From the NCBI GenBank assembly GCA_025544715.1, contig GCA_025544715.1_4109.3: a stretch of DNA of 64,000 nucleotides. The stretch is one strand, 5' to 3'. The DNA comes from Escherichia coli. GTDB taxonomy: Bacteria > Pseudomonadota > Gammaproteobacteria > Enterobacterales > Enterobacteriaceae. This document shows positions 931 to 7,313 of this stretch, in pieces. A program made the position numbers and the translations under genes. Numbering within the stretch: the stretch's first letter is position 1; the number at the start of each line of letters is the position of its first letter. The notes beneath the pieces are model-generated. The model was not told the DNA's origin. It saw nothing but the letters and a program-made list of their open reading frames with translations, and ran no database searches.

Positions 931-1407
931 TTATTTTAGAATATATAAGTGTTTTTCTGCATTGACCAGACGGTGATCAATGATTTCTTTGATAACGTTC
1001 CAGTTACCGCCGCCCAAATCGGCTCCAATTTTCGGGAAATGTACATGAACATCTCGATCAACTTTACAAAAATAATTTAGATGTTTGAACACATCGTCGA
1101 TTGCATCATAACTGACATATTTAGCACCGTCATTACCGTACATTTTTTGGGTAATACAGTTTGCAATAATCAAATTATCGTTAATTGCTGAATATGCAAT
1201 TTGTCCAATTCTAAGAAATCCCATTTCCTTTTCATATGCTTTATAATCATCATATGCCATTGGATAACGATTTCTTAGTTCTTTTGCAAAACCTGAACCC
1301 ATTTTACCCTGTGCGTTACAACCATGAGCAATTATATGTATTGCTGTTTTATCATCTGTTACAGTACTGAATAATTCAAACAGATTACCTCGGTGTTCAT
1401 GAATCAT
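931..1407 (-). CDS. macro-domain protein (ADP-ribose binding/processing)
   Basis: IIAHGCNAQGKMGSGFA and IGADLGGGNW resemble the two glycine-rich ADP-ribose-binding loops of macro domains. Confidence 0.55.
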   Translation of the reverse strand: MIHEHRGNLFELFSTVTDDKTAIHIIAHGCNAQGKMGSGFAKELRNRYPMAYDDYKAYEKEMGFLRIGQIAYSAINDNLIIANCITQKMYGNDGAKYVSYDAIDDVFKHLNYFCKVDRDVHVHFPKIGADLGGGNWNVIKEIIDHRLVNAEKHLYILK

Positions 1408-2237: not shown

Positions 2238-2639
2238 TTATTTCCTTCTATTTCTTTGAAAAGCTTTAACAGCTTTAATAATACTGTTACACATTCGTTC
2301 AGTCAAATACTTTTGACATTCTCGTACATCAATGTACATGAACTTATCCAATTCTGGATGACTCTTACCATATCTATTAGTGTAAGTACTTTTACAAACT
2401 AATTCATCTGGTATTGGTTTGTCTTTGGCAGTATAAAAGAAAAGTACTAACCTTTTTCCCTTTCTATAGGATACATCACCAAGAAACAGAAGATCATCTT
2501 CATCGATTTCGTATCCTGTCTCTTCGAAACATTCACGTACAGCAGCTTCTTTGAAAGTTTCATTACCCTCAGCTTTCCCTTTAGGTAAATCCCAATGATT
2601 CTGTCCGTGTTGTATGTCCGATAAGTATCTGACCATCAC
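2238..2639 (-). CDS. Nudix hydrolase (short N-terminus)
   Basis: Nudix box GKAEGNETFKEAAVRECFEETGYEI; track start is GTG with ATG one codon downstream; only about 14 residues precede the box. Confidence 0.65.
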   Translation of the reverse strand: MMVRYLSDIQHGQNHWDLPKGKAEGNETFKEAAVRECFEETGYEIDEDDLLFLGDVSYRKGKRLVLFFYTAKDKPIPDELVCKSTYTNRYGKSHPELDKFMYIDVRECQKYLTERMCNSIIKAVKAFQRNRRK

Positions 2640-2746: not shown

Positions 2747-3859
2747 TTAGAACATTTGTTTGATTGCTTCGTAACGAAGTTCACAAACAAAATCACGAAT
2801 TTCTGACGTTTCAAGTTCACCATCTTTAACCATTTGCTGAATATCAGGTAATTCAACATCAGTATAACGATCATAAACTTTAATAATTAGATCTTCAAGT
2901 TCTAAATCAATTTCTTTTCGCAAAATGAAGTATTCCAAAACTTTATAAAGGAATTCTTCACCTCCGTTATTTTTAATATTCATATCCAATAAAATATTAC
3001 CCATTTCAATTGGGGTCTTTTTACGGAATGTTTTGATATCATCACGGAAACGTTTGATATAATTACTAAATTTAACATACTTAACTGGAACTTTAATAGC
3101 ACCGTTAAGTACTGAATCATTATTTACTTCTTCATTTTCTAGAAGAATAGACCACAGAAAATATGGTTTATATACATCAGTACAGTTATCTGAAATATAA
3201 TCAATAAGGTCTAAATTCTTTTTGGTCAAAGATGTATTAAACACCTTTTCGTAATAACCAAATTTACTTAGCGTCTTAAGGAACTTTGAAGGCTTTTCTT
3301 CAGAAAATGCTTTTTCGAATTCCACAAAAACACGGTCAGGAACAAGATGATTTAGCTCACCACTATTGACCATTCCAATAGCGAGTTCCTCAGTGCTTTC
3401 ATGAATAGTAAAGTCTGAATAACGAGTAGCAAATCGAGCAAGACGTAACACGCGTAATGGATCTTCTTTAAAATGGTCAGAAACATGACGTAGTACCTTG
3501 TTCTTGATATCAGCTTTACCACCGTATGGATCGATGTGAATTTGTAGTACTGGATCATACGCAATTGCATTAATTGTAAGGTCACGGCGATACAAATCTT
3601 GTTCTAGTGTTACGCCTTTTGTATCCACTTCAAAGCCACCATATCCAGTACCAGTTTTACGCTCAGTACGGGCTAATGCGTGTTCATTACCTTCTGGACT
3701 TAGATATACTGGGAAATCCTTACCTACTTGCTTATAGCCAATACTTTGCAAGTACTTAAGATCAGATTCGGATGCACCAACAATGACATAATCTTTGTCT
3801 TTTGCACGAAGACCCATTAAACGGTCACGGACGTAACCGCCAACCAAATACTTTTTCAT
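2747..3859 (-). CDS. cca: CCA-adding tRNA nucleotidyltransferase
   Basis: N-terminal GGYVRDRLMG...DKDYVIVG head-domain motif of class II tRNA nucleotidyltransferases; 370 aa. Confidence 0.75.
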   Translation of the reverse strand: MKKYLVGGYVRDRLMGLRAKDKDYVIVGASESDLKYLQSIGYKQVGKDFPVYLSPEGNEHALARTERKTGTGYGGFEVDTKGVTLEQDLYRRDLTINAIAYDPVLQIHIDPYGGKADIKNKVLRHVSDHFKEDPLRVLRLARFATRYSDFTIHESTEELAIGMVNSGELNHLVPDRVFVEFEKAFSEEKPSKFLKTLSKFGYYEKVFNTSLTKKNLDLIDYISDNCTDVYKPYFLWSILLENEEVNNDSVLNGAIKVPVKYVKFSNYIKRFRDDIKTFRKKTPIEMGNILLDMNIKNNGGEEFLYKVLEYFILRKEIDLELEDLIIKVYDRYTDVELPDIQQMVKDGELETSEIRDFVCELRYEAIKQMF

Positions 3860-3994: not shown

Positions 3995-4417
3995 TTAAAT
4001 TAATCTGTCACGTAGACGGTCGTAATATTTTTTGTGTATAGCTAGTATACACTGATATGCAGAATAGTCAATACCAAATGTATCATCAATGAACATGTAC
4101 TGATCAAGTGTTTCGGGTCCATTATCATCAACTGGTAATGTCCCTTCTTTTTTTGATAGTGTGTGCCACATCAACTCACTTTCAATATGGTGAGTTGCGT
4201 ATGTCAATTCTATCTTACTTTTTCGTAGTAAAATTAACAATTCATCATTGTCGTCGAGTGCATTACGAAATTTAATACGAACTGTACCCTGGAAATTATT
4301 AGTGTACATAACACGATGATGATTGTATGAAATCAAACCACGCCTTTCAGTACTGATTTCGTGTTCAGCAAAGTACTTTAACGTTTCATTAAATTTTGGA
4401 ATTTTAGTAACGTCCAA
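3995..4417 (-). CDS. hypothetical protein, tandem paralog A (140 aa)
   Basis: C-terminal FIDDTFGIDYSAYQ matches FIEDTFGIDFDTYQ of the adjacent ORF. Confidence 0.5.
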   Translation of the reverse strand: MDVTKIPKFNETLKYFAEHEISTERRGLISYNHHRVMYTNNFQGTVRIKFRNALDDNDELLILLRKSKIELTYATHHIESELMWHTLSKKEGTLPVDDNGPETLDQYMFIDDTFGIDYSAYQCILAIHKKYYDRLRDRLI

Positions 4418-4820
4418 TCACATAATCCTCATAAAGTTCGTATACCCTCATTATACTCTGATATGTATCAAAGTCAATACCAAAGGTATCCTCAATGAAC
4501 TGATATTGCAAAAACTCTTCCTCTGTGGCAGCAATAGGAAGAGTCCCGTTTCGTTGTTCTGGGGATTGAACATCCTCAATATACATCAACACTATACCTT
4601 CATCCAGATTTATATCTATCATAAAAACATCTTCACTATAAAATATGTTATATGTACGGATGAAGAGATTTCCTGTTCTATCATAACTTGACACGTGTGT
4701 TTCATAATACATTTTATCTAAACTAAAGAACAAACCTGTACTATCTGGCTTTTTAGTATTTTTTAATTTAATTTCGATAGCATCAATAATAGGTTTAATA
4801 TCAAACTTTTTCATAGACAA
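4404..4820 (-). CDS. hypothetical protein, tandem paralog B (138 aa)
   Basis: Paralog of 3995..4417. Confidence 0.5.
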   Translation of the reverse strand: MSMKKFDIKPIIDAIEIKLKNTKKPDSTGLFFSLDKMYYETHVSSYDRTGNLFIRTYNIFYSEDVFMIDINLDEGIVLMYIEDVQSPEQRNGTLPIAATEEEFLQYQFIEDTFGIDFDTYQSIMRVYELYEDYVIGRY

Positions 4821-4996
4821 ATCACATACTTATTACTATGTGGGTCGTAACAATATGAATCATTTACCTTAATACCAGGCTTAAGTTCAATAGTTGTTCC
4901 TGTTTCAGTACTGGATTCCGCATCACAGTAAATCATCACACCAACTCCTGCGAGTAATGCTACGATACATACAATTACACCAATGGTATATTCCAT
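4811..4996 (-). CDS. small membrane protein (61 aa)
   Basis: Single hydrophobic helix IGVIVCIVALLAGVGVMIY. Confidence 0.4.
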   Translation of the reverse strand: MEYTIGVIVCIVALLAGVGVMIYCDAESSTETGTTIELKPGIKVNDSYCYDPHSNKYVICL

Positions 4997-5009
4997 TTCA
5001 ATTCCTCGG

Positions 5010-5405
5010 TTATAAAAAGTAATTATACATTTTATTGTACAATATAAAAAGATCTTTCACATTATCATAAGTAATATCAGATACATCATGAATTAATGAT
5101 AACTGAAAAAATGAAGCTTCGTCTATTTCTGCTGGAATTATAACATCACCATCGTCTTCGTCCATTTTATTAGTGTAGTATTTTATGTGATCTACATTCA
5201 ACTCAATAGAGAACGCAATGTTGGTTTTTGTATAATCTTCAATTAATCCAATATATTGAGATTTTTCATTAATAAAAAATCCAATCCCAATACAACGGTT
5301 ATCTGTATATGGATAGTACCATCTATTAATAACTAGGTGTTCAGGTAAGTCCATATCATGTGTTGATATTAGAGATTTTACAATTTCCATCCAGGAATAA
5401 TTCAT
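5010..5405 (-). CDS. hypothetical protein (131 aa)
   Basis: ORF; GGAG RBS after upstream terminator. Confidence 0.45.
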   Translation of the reverse strand: MNYSWMEIVKSLISTHDMDLPEHLVINRWYYPYTDNRCIGIGFFINEKSQYIGLIEDYTKTNIAFSIELNVDHIKYYTNKMDEDDGDVIIPAEIDEASFFQLSLIHDVSDITYDNVKDLFILYNKMYNYFL

Positions 5406-5420
5406 AATTAAAACTCCATA

Positions 5421-5447
5421 AGAAAAGGGACAGAATTAATCTGTCCC
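5421..5447 (-). terminator. hairpin terminator after hpf-like gene
   Basis: gggacag/ctgtccc stem, 7-nt loop, short T-run on minus strand. Confidence 0.4.
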
Positions 5448-5458
5448 TTTAGTCTATA

Positions 5459-5791
5459 TTACTCTTCGTTTTCTGTCAAATCATCAAGAACTGGGTGTTC
5501 TGGATGGTTTCGGCGGTGTAATTTAATGCTTTTGTCTTTACTGAATACAGTTTCCATCTTATCAAAAGATTCAACAATTGCTTTATACAAATCAGCATCA
5601 TCAGCAGTGACTGATTTACTACCAGCAGTTAAAGTTACAGCATATTGAGTTTTATGCTCTTTCTTAACATGAACACCAATGTCTAGTACTGAAGAAGTAC
5701 GGTACTTATCCAGACTTTTTGCTTCATTGTAAATAGCATCTTGGATTGCTGGAGTGATATCAACGTTGCCTTGAATATTTAGATTTAGCAT
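5459..5791 (-). CDS. hpf: ribosome hibernation factor (HPF/RaiA family) homolog
   Basis: MLNLNIQGNVDITPAIQDAI and DLYKAIVESFDKME resemble the N-terminus and helix of YfiA/HPF; strong AAGGAAGGTGA RBS. Confidence 0.6.
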   Translation of the reverse strand: MLNLNIQGNVDITPAIQDAIYNEAKSLDKYRTSSVLDIGVHVKKEHKTQYAVTLTAGSKSVTADDADLYKAIVESFDKMETVFSKDKSIKLHRRNHPEHPVLDDLTENEE

Positions 5792-5807
5792 ATTTCACCT
5801 TCCTTTT

Positions 5808-6734
5808 TTAGAGTGAACTTAACAACAAATCTGCTCGGTTTGTAACTTGACGATACCATAAGGAATTCATGATTTCTTTTTTAAATTTCTTAGGGTTATC
5901 ATTTTTTACGCTTTTCCAAAGCTTATTAAACGTAGCCAATTTATCGACACCCATTGTATAGGACATTTCAAAAAGAATACGTTGTTGTTCTTTGGTCAGA
6001 TTTACTGCTTCTTTTTTCTGCATCAACAATAAAAAGTCATTATATGTTCTTTTCATATCTTGCATTAAAAGTTTATTGGCTTGAGCTTTGGTAATACCGT
6101 TTCTGTACTTAATCGCATCAGATTCTTTTCTACCCAAATAATGCCCATAACCTATTGTATAATTACCTTTCATGTCCTTGTAGGGATGAAATTTAGAATT
6201 GTGGAAAGGAACTCCGACTTTCCCACCAAGTAAACGGCGTTTGTTCTTGGACTGAAATTCAATTGAACCTTCAGCTTCTTTGATGTGATTGACAATTTCT
6301 GGATCATTATAATCAAACAGTACAGTCACATCTGGTAACAATACGTTCTTCAAATCCTCTTTTGTTGGGATAAAGATACCCTGAGAAGTATGAAGAGTAG
6401 CATTTAAATTGATATTTTTCAACAAAATAACATACTCTTCAAGTTGTACATTTTTAGGTTTAAACTTTTTAGCAATAGAATAATAACTATCACCAGGTTG
6501 AACCGTATAATGCTTCTCGCCGCGTGGAACATCCTTTGATATTTCTACCTTTGGTAATTCCTGCTTTTGAATTTGCGTAACTTGTGGTTTTAAATTGTGT
6601 ACCTGACTTTCGTCCGATGATGATACACGATCATTTTGAGAAAAACCATAAAATCCAATCGCAGCGACAAGTACTGTGCAAACTAGAACACCATAAGTAG
6701 TCTTAGTTTTCAGTGCTTTTTTCGCTTGTTTCAA
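5808..6734 (-). CDS. endolysin: signal-anchor + LysM + T4-type lysozyme
   Basis: N-terminal TM, LysM-like HYTVQPGDSYYSIAKKF, C-terminal GNYTIGYGHYL and WYRQVTNRA matching T4 lysozyme; start re-assigned to TTG with GGAGG RBS (track start 6767 is also TTG). Confidence 0.65.
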   Translation of the reverse strand: MKQAKKALKTKTTYGVLVCTVLVAAIGFYGFSQNDRVSSSDESQVHNLKPQVTQIQKQELPKVEISKDVPRGEKHYTVQPGDSYYSIAKKFKPKNVQLEEYVILLKNINLNATLHTSQGIFIPTKEDLKNVLLPDVTVLFDYNDPEIVNHIKEAEGSIEFQSKNKRRLLGGKVGVPFHNSKFHPYKDMKGNYTIGYGHYLGRKESDAIKYRNGITKAQANKLLMQDMKRTYNDFLLLMQKKEAVNLTKEQQRILFEMSYTMGVDKLATFNKLWKSVKNDNPKKFKKEIMNSLWYRQVTNRADLLLSSL

Positions 6735-6902
6735 AACGCCTCCTTTGTTGATTGTTAAGATGGGCAATCACAAAGATGGCAAAGAGGCCATTTGCAAAAG
6801 CCTCATCGGACTTTCTACAGTACAAAAACGTTCTTTTCAAATGTTTAAGTAGTATAGCATATTTTTATTTTATTACAAGACATATTTACTGTAAAAACCA
6901 CA

Positions 6903-7313
6903 TTAATCGTAGTAGGTTCTACCTACAGTTATGTGATATTTAAAGTACTTGGTTGGTAGTCCTAGTTCGTTTCTAATGTGTGTGATGAAATCATCTTCAA
7001 ATTCAATGATAAAGAATGAACCTGGATTCTTTTTATCTTTTACTATCTCAATAGAAGGATTGAACTTTATCTTTACTTTCATTCCATCGTATTTTTTCCA
7101 GAACTCTTCATGTGGTGGTACTTCACCACGCACTATACTAACATGTGCTCCCCATTGAGGATCTTTAACATCAATATGTAAATCAGTTCTGATGAAGTAC
7201 TGGTAGTATCTAACCAACTGTAATGGAAGTTGTAGTACTAACCAGAAGTCCTTCTTCTTTTTCATAGTGCCACGATCTGGATCATACACCAGAGTTCCTT
7301 CCATTTCAATCAT
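6903..7313 (-). CDS. 2H-phosphoesterase-fold protein (LigT/Acb1-like)
   Basis: Two H-x-[ST]-x motifs, HVSI at His57 and HITV at His127, about 70 residues apart; 136 aa. Confidence 0.45.
   Translation of the reverse strand: MIEMEGTLVYDPDRGTMKKKKDFWLVLQLPLQLVRYYQYFIRTDLHIDVKDPQWGAHVSIVRGEVPPHEEFWKKYDGMKVKIKFNPSIEIVKDKKNPGSFFIIEFEDDFITHIRNELGLPTKYFKYHITVGRTYYD

Follow-up and report, generated by a model that had tools for sequence, protein, structure and literature searches.

Does the jumbo phage gene located on the minus strand at nucleotides 5459 to 5791 (ATG at 5791-5789, TAA at 5461-5459) of the DNA analyzed here code for a ribosome hibernation factor, and if so, what could a phage do with such a protein? 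The 64,000-nucleotide stretch, from here on the window, belongs to Asteriusvirus, the 121Q/PBECO4-like E. coli jumbo phages of about 350 kb, and the region is 95-98% identical to those of SP27, slurp01, Sharanji, G17, 121Q, and PBECO4. The gene was taken from the list of ORFs of the window, and its 110-amino acid product had been identified in a preliminary description as a phage homolog of HPF/RaiA. HMM search, fold prediction, fold search, and public annotation all agree with this identification.

The HMM search of the phage protein against the S30AE/HPF family, which had been put forward as a check, gave a significant match to Pfam PF02482 (Ribosomal_S30AE) with 41 bits and an E value of 3.3e-10, the gathering score being 23.7. 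A resemblance at the N-terminus and the central helix had been noted; it is present but is not limited to those parts, as residues 5-87 align with profile positions 2-84 of 88, covering the whole domain. Searches of the PDB sequences with the single protein and with a 13-sequence profile returned HPF, RaiA, and protein Y chains exclusively, including those of Thermus thermophilus and Bacillus subtilis as well as E. coli HPF and RaiA. The AF2 model (mean pLDDT 75) has strands at residues 2-8, 36-44, 50-56, and 59-65 and helices at 14-30 and 68-86, and the folded domain (residues 1-87) is followed by a tail, residues 88-110 reading SIKLHRRNHPEHPVLDDLTENEE, which has a pLDDT below 50 and is predicted to be disordered. 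When the model was compared to the PDB using Foldseek, the best 38 matches (37 at E ≤ 0.001 plus the next one) were all hibernation factors of the HPF/YfiA/pY type, two of them being the related mycobacterial factor RafH, with TMt values up to 0.81 and most of the structures bound to ribosomes.

Three NCBIfam cut-offs were missed: the trusted cut-off of TIGR00741 (36.3 versus 40.9 bits) and those of the RaiA equivalog NF007654 (19.3 versus 158 bits) and the short HPF equivalog NF007780 (23.2 versus 125 bits). Since the equivalog cut-offs were missed, the phage protein is considered a divergent member of the family and not an ortholog of either E. coli HPF or RaiA. Pfam gave no further domain in the 110 amino acids, and the C-terminal dimerization domain of the long HPFs is absent. 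Dodecin, the other candidate that came up, was rejected in favor of HPF; its matches were below threshold (Pfam, 19.5 versus 22.5 bits; NCBIfam, 13 versus 75) and covered 45 residues. Sequence profiles and the predicted structure place the gene product in the HPF/YfiA family, as a short and divergent member of the tailed RaiA type.

Of the host proteins, E. coli RaiA, also known as YfiA or protein Y, is alike in length (113 amino acids versus 110 for the phage protein) and also has a disordered tail of about 25 residues past helix 2 and an acidic C-terminus (EEVEEE in RaiA, DLTENEE in the phage protein). The two proteins differ in that their identity is as low as about 22-24% when structurally aligned and 30% over 77 hhalign columns, and in that the β2-β3 hairpin is lysine-rich (KKEHK) in the phage version. 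Moreover, RaiA is induced by stress from a host promoter, whereas the phage gene is virus-encoded and co-transcribed with a lysozyme gene. The fold is also common to the short HPF of E. coli (YhbH), a 95-amino acid protein that forms 100S dimers together with RMF and is the best E. coli structural match (6h4n chain x, TM 0.79, rmsd 1.7 Å, 28% identity). On the other hand, the short HPF stops at residue 95 without a tail, whereas the tail of the phage protein is conserved and 23 residues long. The long HPFs of Firmicutes and Thermus (about 185 amino acids) have a homologous N-terminal domain, and the T. thermophilus and B. subtilis proteins are among the best sequence matches, but the phage protein lacks their C-terminal dimerization domain. 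With 110 amino acids, no dimerization domain, and a tail predicted to be disordered, the phage protein should therefore be unable to dimerize ribosomes by the long-HPF mechanism.

How much of the ribosome-binding surface is left was determined by residue mapping, for which the phage profile was aligned to E. coli HPF and RaiA with hhalign (probabilities of 94% and 86%, respectively; offset of −2 in helix 2) and a 76-sequence alignment was used in addition. The E. coli HPF and RaiA sequences were verified against the PDB. The helix-2 ribosome contacts shared by HPF and YfiA are K80, R83, K87, K89, and K91; in addition, the aromatic residue 30 stacks on A790, and T53/62 serves as a platform for m2G966 (bioRxiv 10.1101/2025.10.07.680626). 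In the phage family, K78 (K80 in the host proteins), K85 (K87), and K87 (K89, or Q89) are invariant in 13 phage clusters, as are D67, Y69, A71, and I72 of the D-x-Y-x-A-I motif that starts helix 2. In the 76-sequence alignment K29 and the aromatic residue at position 30 (Y/F), also common to RaiA, are kept in the phage family, and T53 is found in most members. The β2-β3 hairpin, VHVKKEHKTQY, is invariant in the phage clusters and more basic than its counterparts in the host. Variation is concentrated in the N-terminal half of helix 1, a part with few ribosome contacts in the cryo-EM complexes (bioRxiv 10.1101/2025.10.07.680626).

Other contact positions have changed. The arginine matching E. 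coli R83, which contacts m4C1402 and has been termed 'a single essential arginine' on the basis of four cryo-EM structures (bioRxiv 10.1101/2025.10.07.680626), is absent from the window protein, where the residue is Thr81. This position is T or V in Asteriusvirus, with Lys in one cluster, and T, S, E, or H in the other jumbo phage lineages; it is R or K in 35 of the 55 other family members. K23 is replaced by Glu, K26 is variable, and D75, Q84, and K91 are changed as well; in contrast to RaiA, the residues at positions 23, 26, and 91 are non-basic in the phage protein. The protein as a whole is acidic, with a pI of 5.5.

The tail is similar to that of RaiA. Phage R93-R94 fall in the register of RaiA R95-R96, with R94 being invariant; this ungapped register is a manual extension, as the hhalign alignment stopped before the tail. 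All relatives compared have in common the pattern K-x-K-x-x-L-x-[KR]-R followed by 5-10 residues and T-[DE]-x-[DE]-E at the acidic C-terminus, and the 23 residues are conserved across the phage clusters. In YfiA, R95 and R96 touch the 16S rRNA and uS7, and the tail is directed to the RMF site and thought to be incompatible with RMF binding (bioRxiv 10.1101/2025.10.07.680626).

HPF homologs encoded by viruses were described by Mizuno et al. in 2019 in the rV5-like Vequintavirinae and in the Cronobacter phage GAP32, in a table that does not include the Asteriusvirus lineage (PMC6375957). Like the window protein, these are PF02482 proteins of 105-111 amino acids encoded by large enterobacterial myoviruses (PMC6375957), and the GAP32 protein is also a structural match (BFVD K4F6Q6, E value 2.4e-7), although its identity to the window protein is 16%. 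With 40-44% identity to E. coli HPF, the rV5-type proteins fall inside the gammaproteobacterial sequences, whereas the Asteriusvirus lineage is far more divergent. When rV5 HPF was expressed in E. coli, none of it was seen in 70S or 100S ribosomes after a salt wash, and the levels of 100S were unchanged (PMC6375957). Our literature searches for experiments on phage HPFs other than those of Mizuno et al. found nothing.

The reading that we favor, with moderate confidence and by analogy to the host factors, is that the phage protein binds the ribosome at the canonical HPF/RaiA site. It agrees with the passed PF02482 threshold, with PDB sequence and fold matches that are HPF/RaiA proteins bound at that site, and with the invariant K78, K85, and K87, which are among the conserved contacts listed in the recent preprint (bioRxiv 10.1101/2025.10.07.680626). 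Further points in its favor are the kept K29, Y/F30, D67, Y69, and I72, the RaiA-like tail with R93-R94, the clustering of variable positions where few contacts are made, and, as described below, the purifying selection, the conserved gene order, and the detection of a homolog as protein. Against it stand the missed NCBIfam cut-offs, the loss of the R83 equivalent, the replacements of K23, K26, D75, Q84, and K91, the pI of 5.5, and the absence from salt-washed ribosomes of rV5 HPF, a protein nearer to host HPF than the one studied here (PMC6375957). Bound in this manner, the folded domain would sit in a vacant host 70S ribosome, in the 30S channel that runs between head and body and is otherwise taken up by mRNA and by the tRNAs of the A and P sites. 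Contacts would be made by Lys78, Lys85, and Lys87 of helix 2, by Lys29 and Tyr30 where helix 1 ends, and by the β-sheet platform around Thr53; Arg93-Arg94 would lead the acidic tail to uS7 and the RMF site, as R95/R96 do in RaiA. Idle ribosomes would then be parked as inactive and protected 70S monomers, with the decoding center and the 3′ end of the 16S rRNA shielded from nucleases and toxins, and the tail would obstruct RMF so that the 100S dimers driven by host RMF and HPF would be pre-empted in starved or stressed infected cells. The earlier suggestion that a phage copy could lock or modulate host ribosomes during takeover is, by the same analogy, reasonable, and the biological purpose could be protection, late shut-off, or anti-hibernation.

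A different possibility is that the protein is a competitor, which binds the site weakly or transiently and displaces host HPF, and with its RaiA-like tail RMF, so that 100S dimers are prevented or dissolved and the ribosomes of a dormant host are freed for phage mRNAs. This is the hypothesis of Mizuno et al. for viral HPF, and it fits the missing rV5 HPF in salt-washed ribosomes (PMC6375957). It is also in line with a ribosome-binding surface that is degenerate in the Asteriusvirus protein (R83, K23, K26, and K91 lost) and with a tail resembling that of RaiA, which runs to the RMF site. However, the host has plenty of RaiA and HPF in stationary phase, and a protein that binds weakly would be a poor rival to them. 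In addition, the invariant K78, K85, K87, and R94 together with the hairpin VHVKKEHKTQY point to a specific, selected interface and not to a loosened one. We regard this anti-hibernation activity as possible but unlikely.

The gene itself is already known: RefSeq has it annotated, and viral HPFs have been in the literature since 2019. Added here are its recognition as a divergent, short, tailed, RaiA-type member, the residue mapping, the dN/dS values, the synteny, and the lysozyme-HPF unit. At least 11 deposited phages have an identical 110-amino acid protein, under the names "Sigma 54 modulation protein/S30EA" or "HPF/RaiA family ribosome-associated protein", and the RefSeq annotations of 121Q gp533 and of the PBECO4 ortholog also carry HPF/RaiA-type names. 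The PHROG that includes the Asteriusvirus HPF, 34864, is labeled 'unknown function'. The paper describing Sharanji placed HPF among the translation-related genes without experiments (PMC11895373). For the Klebsiella phage fENko-Kae01, mass spectrometry found 6 peptides of the homolog in a preparation that also contained many non-structural enzymes (PMC11218385), for which reason we take the detection as a sign of expression and not of packaging. HPF is not mentioned in the virion proteome of phAPEC6.

A word-indexed search retrieved 14 clusters, all of them Asteriusvirus-like. An exhaustive profile search found 6 proteins with E values below 1e-10 and 63 below 1e-3. The nearest outliers (P0016, P0017, P0018, P0019, and P0021) are 26-33% identical to the window protein, and the protein from the Erwinia phage Hallingskeid is 46% identical. 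A tblastn search with E. coli HPF as the query recovered about 130 phage records, mostly rV5-like. The representative search also returned a protein of 1605 amino acids (P0015) that consists of 29 tandem copies of a 53-amino acid unit matching positions 45-81 of the phage HPF profile (E value 2.6e-34); this is probably an artefact of assembly or amplification.

The gene order around HPF is conserved. The arrangement 2H phosphoesterase, a variable gene, lysozyme, HPF, zero to seven small genes, CCA-adding enzyme, Nudix hydrolase, and glutaredoxin is kept in 121Q, a Munch-like contig, Hallingskeid, and a fourth lineage, and the same genes are present in the window. In the Hallingskeid record the 2H phosphoesterase and the lysozyme go unnamed, and the gene directly preceding HPF is listed only as hypothetical. 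Among these lineages the HPF proteins are 29-46% identical. Pairwise comparisons of the Asteriusvirus HPF alleles gave dN/dS values of 0.12-0.27 at dS 0.4-1.2, and by this measure the gene is under purifying selection. The kept synteny and the low dN/dS thus describe an old, vertically inherited, and selected core gene rather than a recent capture.

These data bear on the idea that the gene is a dispensable passenger, captured from a bacterium and with no role in infection. Four records of Salmonella Asteriusvirus phages, SD-15_S21, SD-2_S15, SD-1_S14, and SD-6_S16 (L005-L008), carry four different deletions internal to HPF, which taken at face value would favor this idea. We rejected them as proof of dispensability: the deletions are confined to a divergent island described below (the equivalent of about 5590..5780 in the window), and in the same records the lysozyme genes are split, small genes are missing, and the genomes, at 310-326 kb, are 25-40 kb short, so that the deletions are probably assembly artefacts. 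In addition, the position of the gene is kept down to 29% identity with a dN/dS well below 1, and the phage protein is 22-28% identical to E. coli HPF and RaiA and no nearer to these than to the Thermus or Bacillus proteins. A mere passenger is therefore highly improbable.

The window and 121Q (L001) are 98% identical over 11.8 kb save for two islands of about 250 bp in which identity drops to about 78-80%. The first island, 5530..5800, corresponds exactly to the folded domain of HPF, with the tail and both flanks being identical to 121Q; the second, 4800..5040, spans an ORF for a 61-amino acid membrane protein at 4811..4996. The dN/dS between the diverged HPF alleles is about 0.15. Two divergent islands in DNA that is otherwise 98-100% identical are what allele replacement by recombination would leave behind, and the sequence comparison points to such allele swapping as the origin of the island covering the HPF domain.

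How is the gene expressed? The ribosome-binding site, which had been described as strong, was read from the sequence as a Shine-Dalgarno element, GGAAGGTGA, at 5803..5795 on the minus strand, 3 nt before the ATG. The genes adjoining HPF are all on this same strand. The ATG is 16 nt beyond the stop codon (5810-5808) of the lysozyme gene with no promoter between them, and HPF can therefore be considered the second and last cistron of a lysozyme-HPF unit. The preliminary description had also given the gene its own terminator; scanning and folding located an intrinsic terminator at 5415..5450 on the minus strand, composed of the stem AAAGGGACAGA/TCTGTCCCTTT, the loop TTAAT, and a U-rich tail. The 11-bp hairpin (5450..5424), 12 nt past the HPF stop codon and followed by UUUUCUUAU, has a folding energy of −18 kcal/mol (z = −3.6 against shuffled sequences). 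A hairpin with a U-tract is equally placed after the HPF orthologs of A4, Turkey5, EJP2, Hallingskeid, and the metagenomic relatives L002 and L037, which makes six folded examples from five lineages with four stem sequences (GGGACAGA, GGACAUUCC, GGGCAGCC, and GGAAGCC). The conservation of position in spite of the differing stems gives good comparative support for a working terminator. Of the transcription signals, HPF has a terminator but no promoter to itself.

The first cistron, 5808..6734 on the minus strand, codes for a muramidase that has LysM and T4-lysozyme-type domains (Pfam LysM and Phage_lysozyme) in addition to a hydrophobic segment at its N-terminus; its TTG start at 6734 was taken from the annotation of 121Q. 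A scan placed a σ70-like promoter with an extended −10 at 6851..6878 on the same strand (TTGTAA, 16 nt, TGcTATACT), with a predicted transcription start near 6845. All Asteriusvirus variants share the −10 block, ATGCTATACT or ATGCTATAAT, and in EJP2 and Hallingskeid the promoter position is taken by TTGACA-17-TAGACT. In this AT-rich region the scan found 10 sites versus 12.8 in shuffled sequence, which is no enrichment, and the promoter upstream of lysozyme is thus proposed on positional evidence only. The bicistronic arrangement is not universal in the clade, owing to an insertion in Munch-group isolates. In the Munch-group record SE_PL (L034, 620-1300) a 205-amino acid hypothetical gene and a terminator lie between lysozyme and HPF.

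Between the promoter and the ribosome-binding site of the lysozyme gene is a structured 5′ leader of about 110 nt (6735..6850, minus strand). Its motif, located at 6818..6789, is GTAGAAAGTCC-N5-GAGGCTTTTGCAAA in the window and invariant; across lineages it reads GTAGAAAGTCC-N5-6-GAGGCTTT(G)TGCAAA. It is invariant in the leaders of Asteriusvirus, EJP2/Hallingskeid, and the Munch-like phages, whose HPFs share 31-46% identity with the window protein; the fourth lineage has kept part of it, and it is found upstream of lysozyme in every lineage examined. In the relatives the leader is at 4937-5070 of L001, 236-369 of L026, 238-371 of L027, 239-373 of L028, 237-370 of L029, 4945-5079 of L004, 6949-7082 of L002, 1770-1903 of L010, and 3990-4080 of L037. 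The motif occurs once in the 64-kb window, and the possibility that it is a general phage promoter was rejected for this reason. A scan of IMG/VR with the 17-nt core returned 17 loci, with the full motif in two of them (121Q and a 366-kb Munch-like contig); the remaining core loci were dismissed as chance matches inside genes.

Other explanations of the leader were also discarded. A comparison to Rfam at E ≤ 10 yielded sub-threshold noise alone, so that the leader was not assigned to a known RNA family. The elements GAAAGUC and GAUGAG resemble those of the hammerhead ribozyme core, but on inspection there is no room for stem III. A small upstream ORF starting in the hairpin was set aside after reading the sequences, as neither its length nor its peptide is conserved between lineages.

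The leader folds with z = −2.7, and the motif can form a 9-bp hairpin, H1. In an alternative fold the loop and the 3′ half of the motif pair with downstream sequence to give a longer helix capped by a small hairpin. Loop and partner change together in four Asteriusvirus variants (GAUGAG with C(C/U)CAUC, AAUGAG with CUCAUU, and AGUGAG with CUCACU). In the extended helix 98.5% of the cells are paired, with two pairs changed on both sides, versus 34-48% in slid controls; the test included 4 distinct sequences, and 26 of 500 shuffles did as well. The small hairpins that flank the motif hold their position with unrelated sequences. Taken together, the comparisons are suggestive, not conclusive, of a candidate new cis-regulatory RNA with two mutually exclusive folds.

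The neighbors of HPF are genes for RNA repair and nucleotide housekeeping located at 6903..7313, 2747..3859, 2238..2639, and 931..1407 on the minus strand. The set comprises a 2H phosphoesterase (PF22547, 25.6 bits and thus slightly short of the 27-bit cut-off, with two HxT/S motifs visible), a CCA-adding tRNA nucleotidyltransferase, a Nudix hydrolase, and a weak macro-domain protein. In the related phages L002 and L004 an RNA ligase gene is found about 4 kb upstream. The gene content suggests a putative module for maintenance of the translation apparatus or for counter-defense. Also in this region are three adjacent ORFs of 131-140 amino acids (3995..4417, 4404..4820, and 5010..5405, minus strand) that appear to be paralogs; they share C-terminal motifs such as F(I/L)(D/E)DTFGID, their number varies between related phages, none of the three has a Pfam match, and blastn of the window against 121Q cross-matches two of them.

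The leader and the islands can also be read as indications that the HPF fold has been exapted for another partner, for example its own mRNA leader, a phage RNA, or a component of a host defense or toxin system that targets the translation apparatus. The loss of canonical contact residues would agree with this, and so would the unusually conserved leader RNA on the operon and the location of the folded domain in one of two divergent islands, a pattern more usual for host-interaction or counter-defense genes than for a protein that binds the unvarying decoding center. Yet most hallmark positions of the family are kept, the best fold matches are all ribosome-bound HPFs, the allele divergence took place under purifying and not diversifying selection (dN/dS about 0.15), and an alternative partner is indicated by none of the results. 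Exaptation is in our opinion decidedly unlikely. A joint reading of the locus, to which we give little credence, is that a new leader RNA with an invariant 28-nt motif and two mutually exclusive folds controls the lysozyme-HPF operon and that the tailed HPF without R83 is a specialized counter-defense or ribosome-shielding factor and not a plain copy of RaiA. If this were true, the decoding center would be guarded from nucleases and toxins or the RMF-dependent formation of 100S would be blocked, and feedback on the leader would be possible.

The significance of the gene lies in what hibernation factors do: they decide whether a starved bacterium keeps a usable pool of ribosomes. A viral copy could steer that choice in stationary-phase or stressed hosts, the setting of most encounters between phages and bacteria both in nature and in phage therapy. 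The lineage is a good test case: Sharanji infects E. coli K-12, the protein is small and conserved, and the clear prediction from its sequence is that it binds as RaiA does but without R83. Less expected is the conserved leader RNA, which may merit a study of its own.
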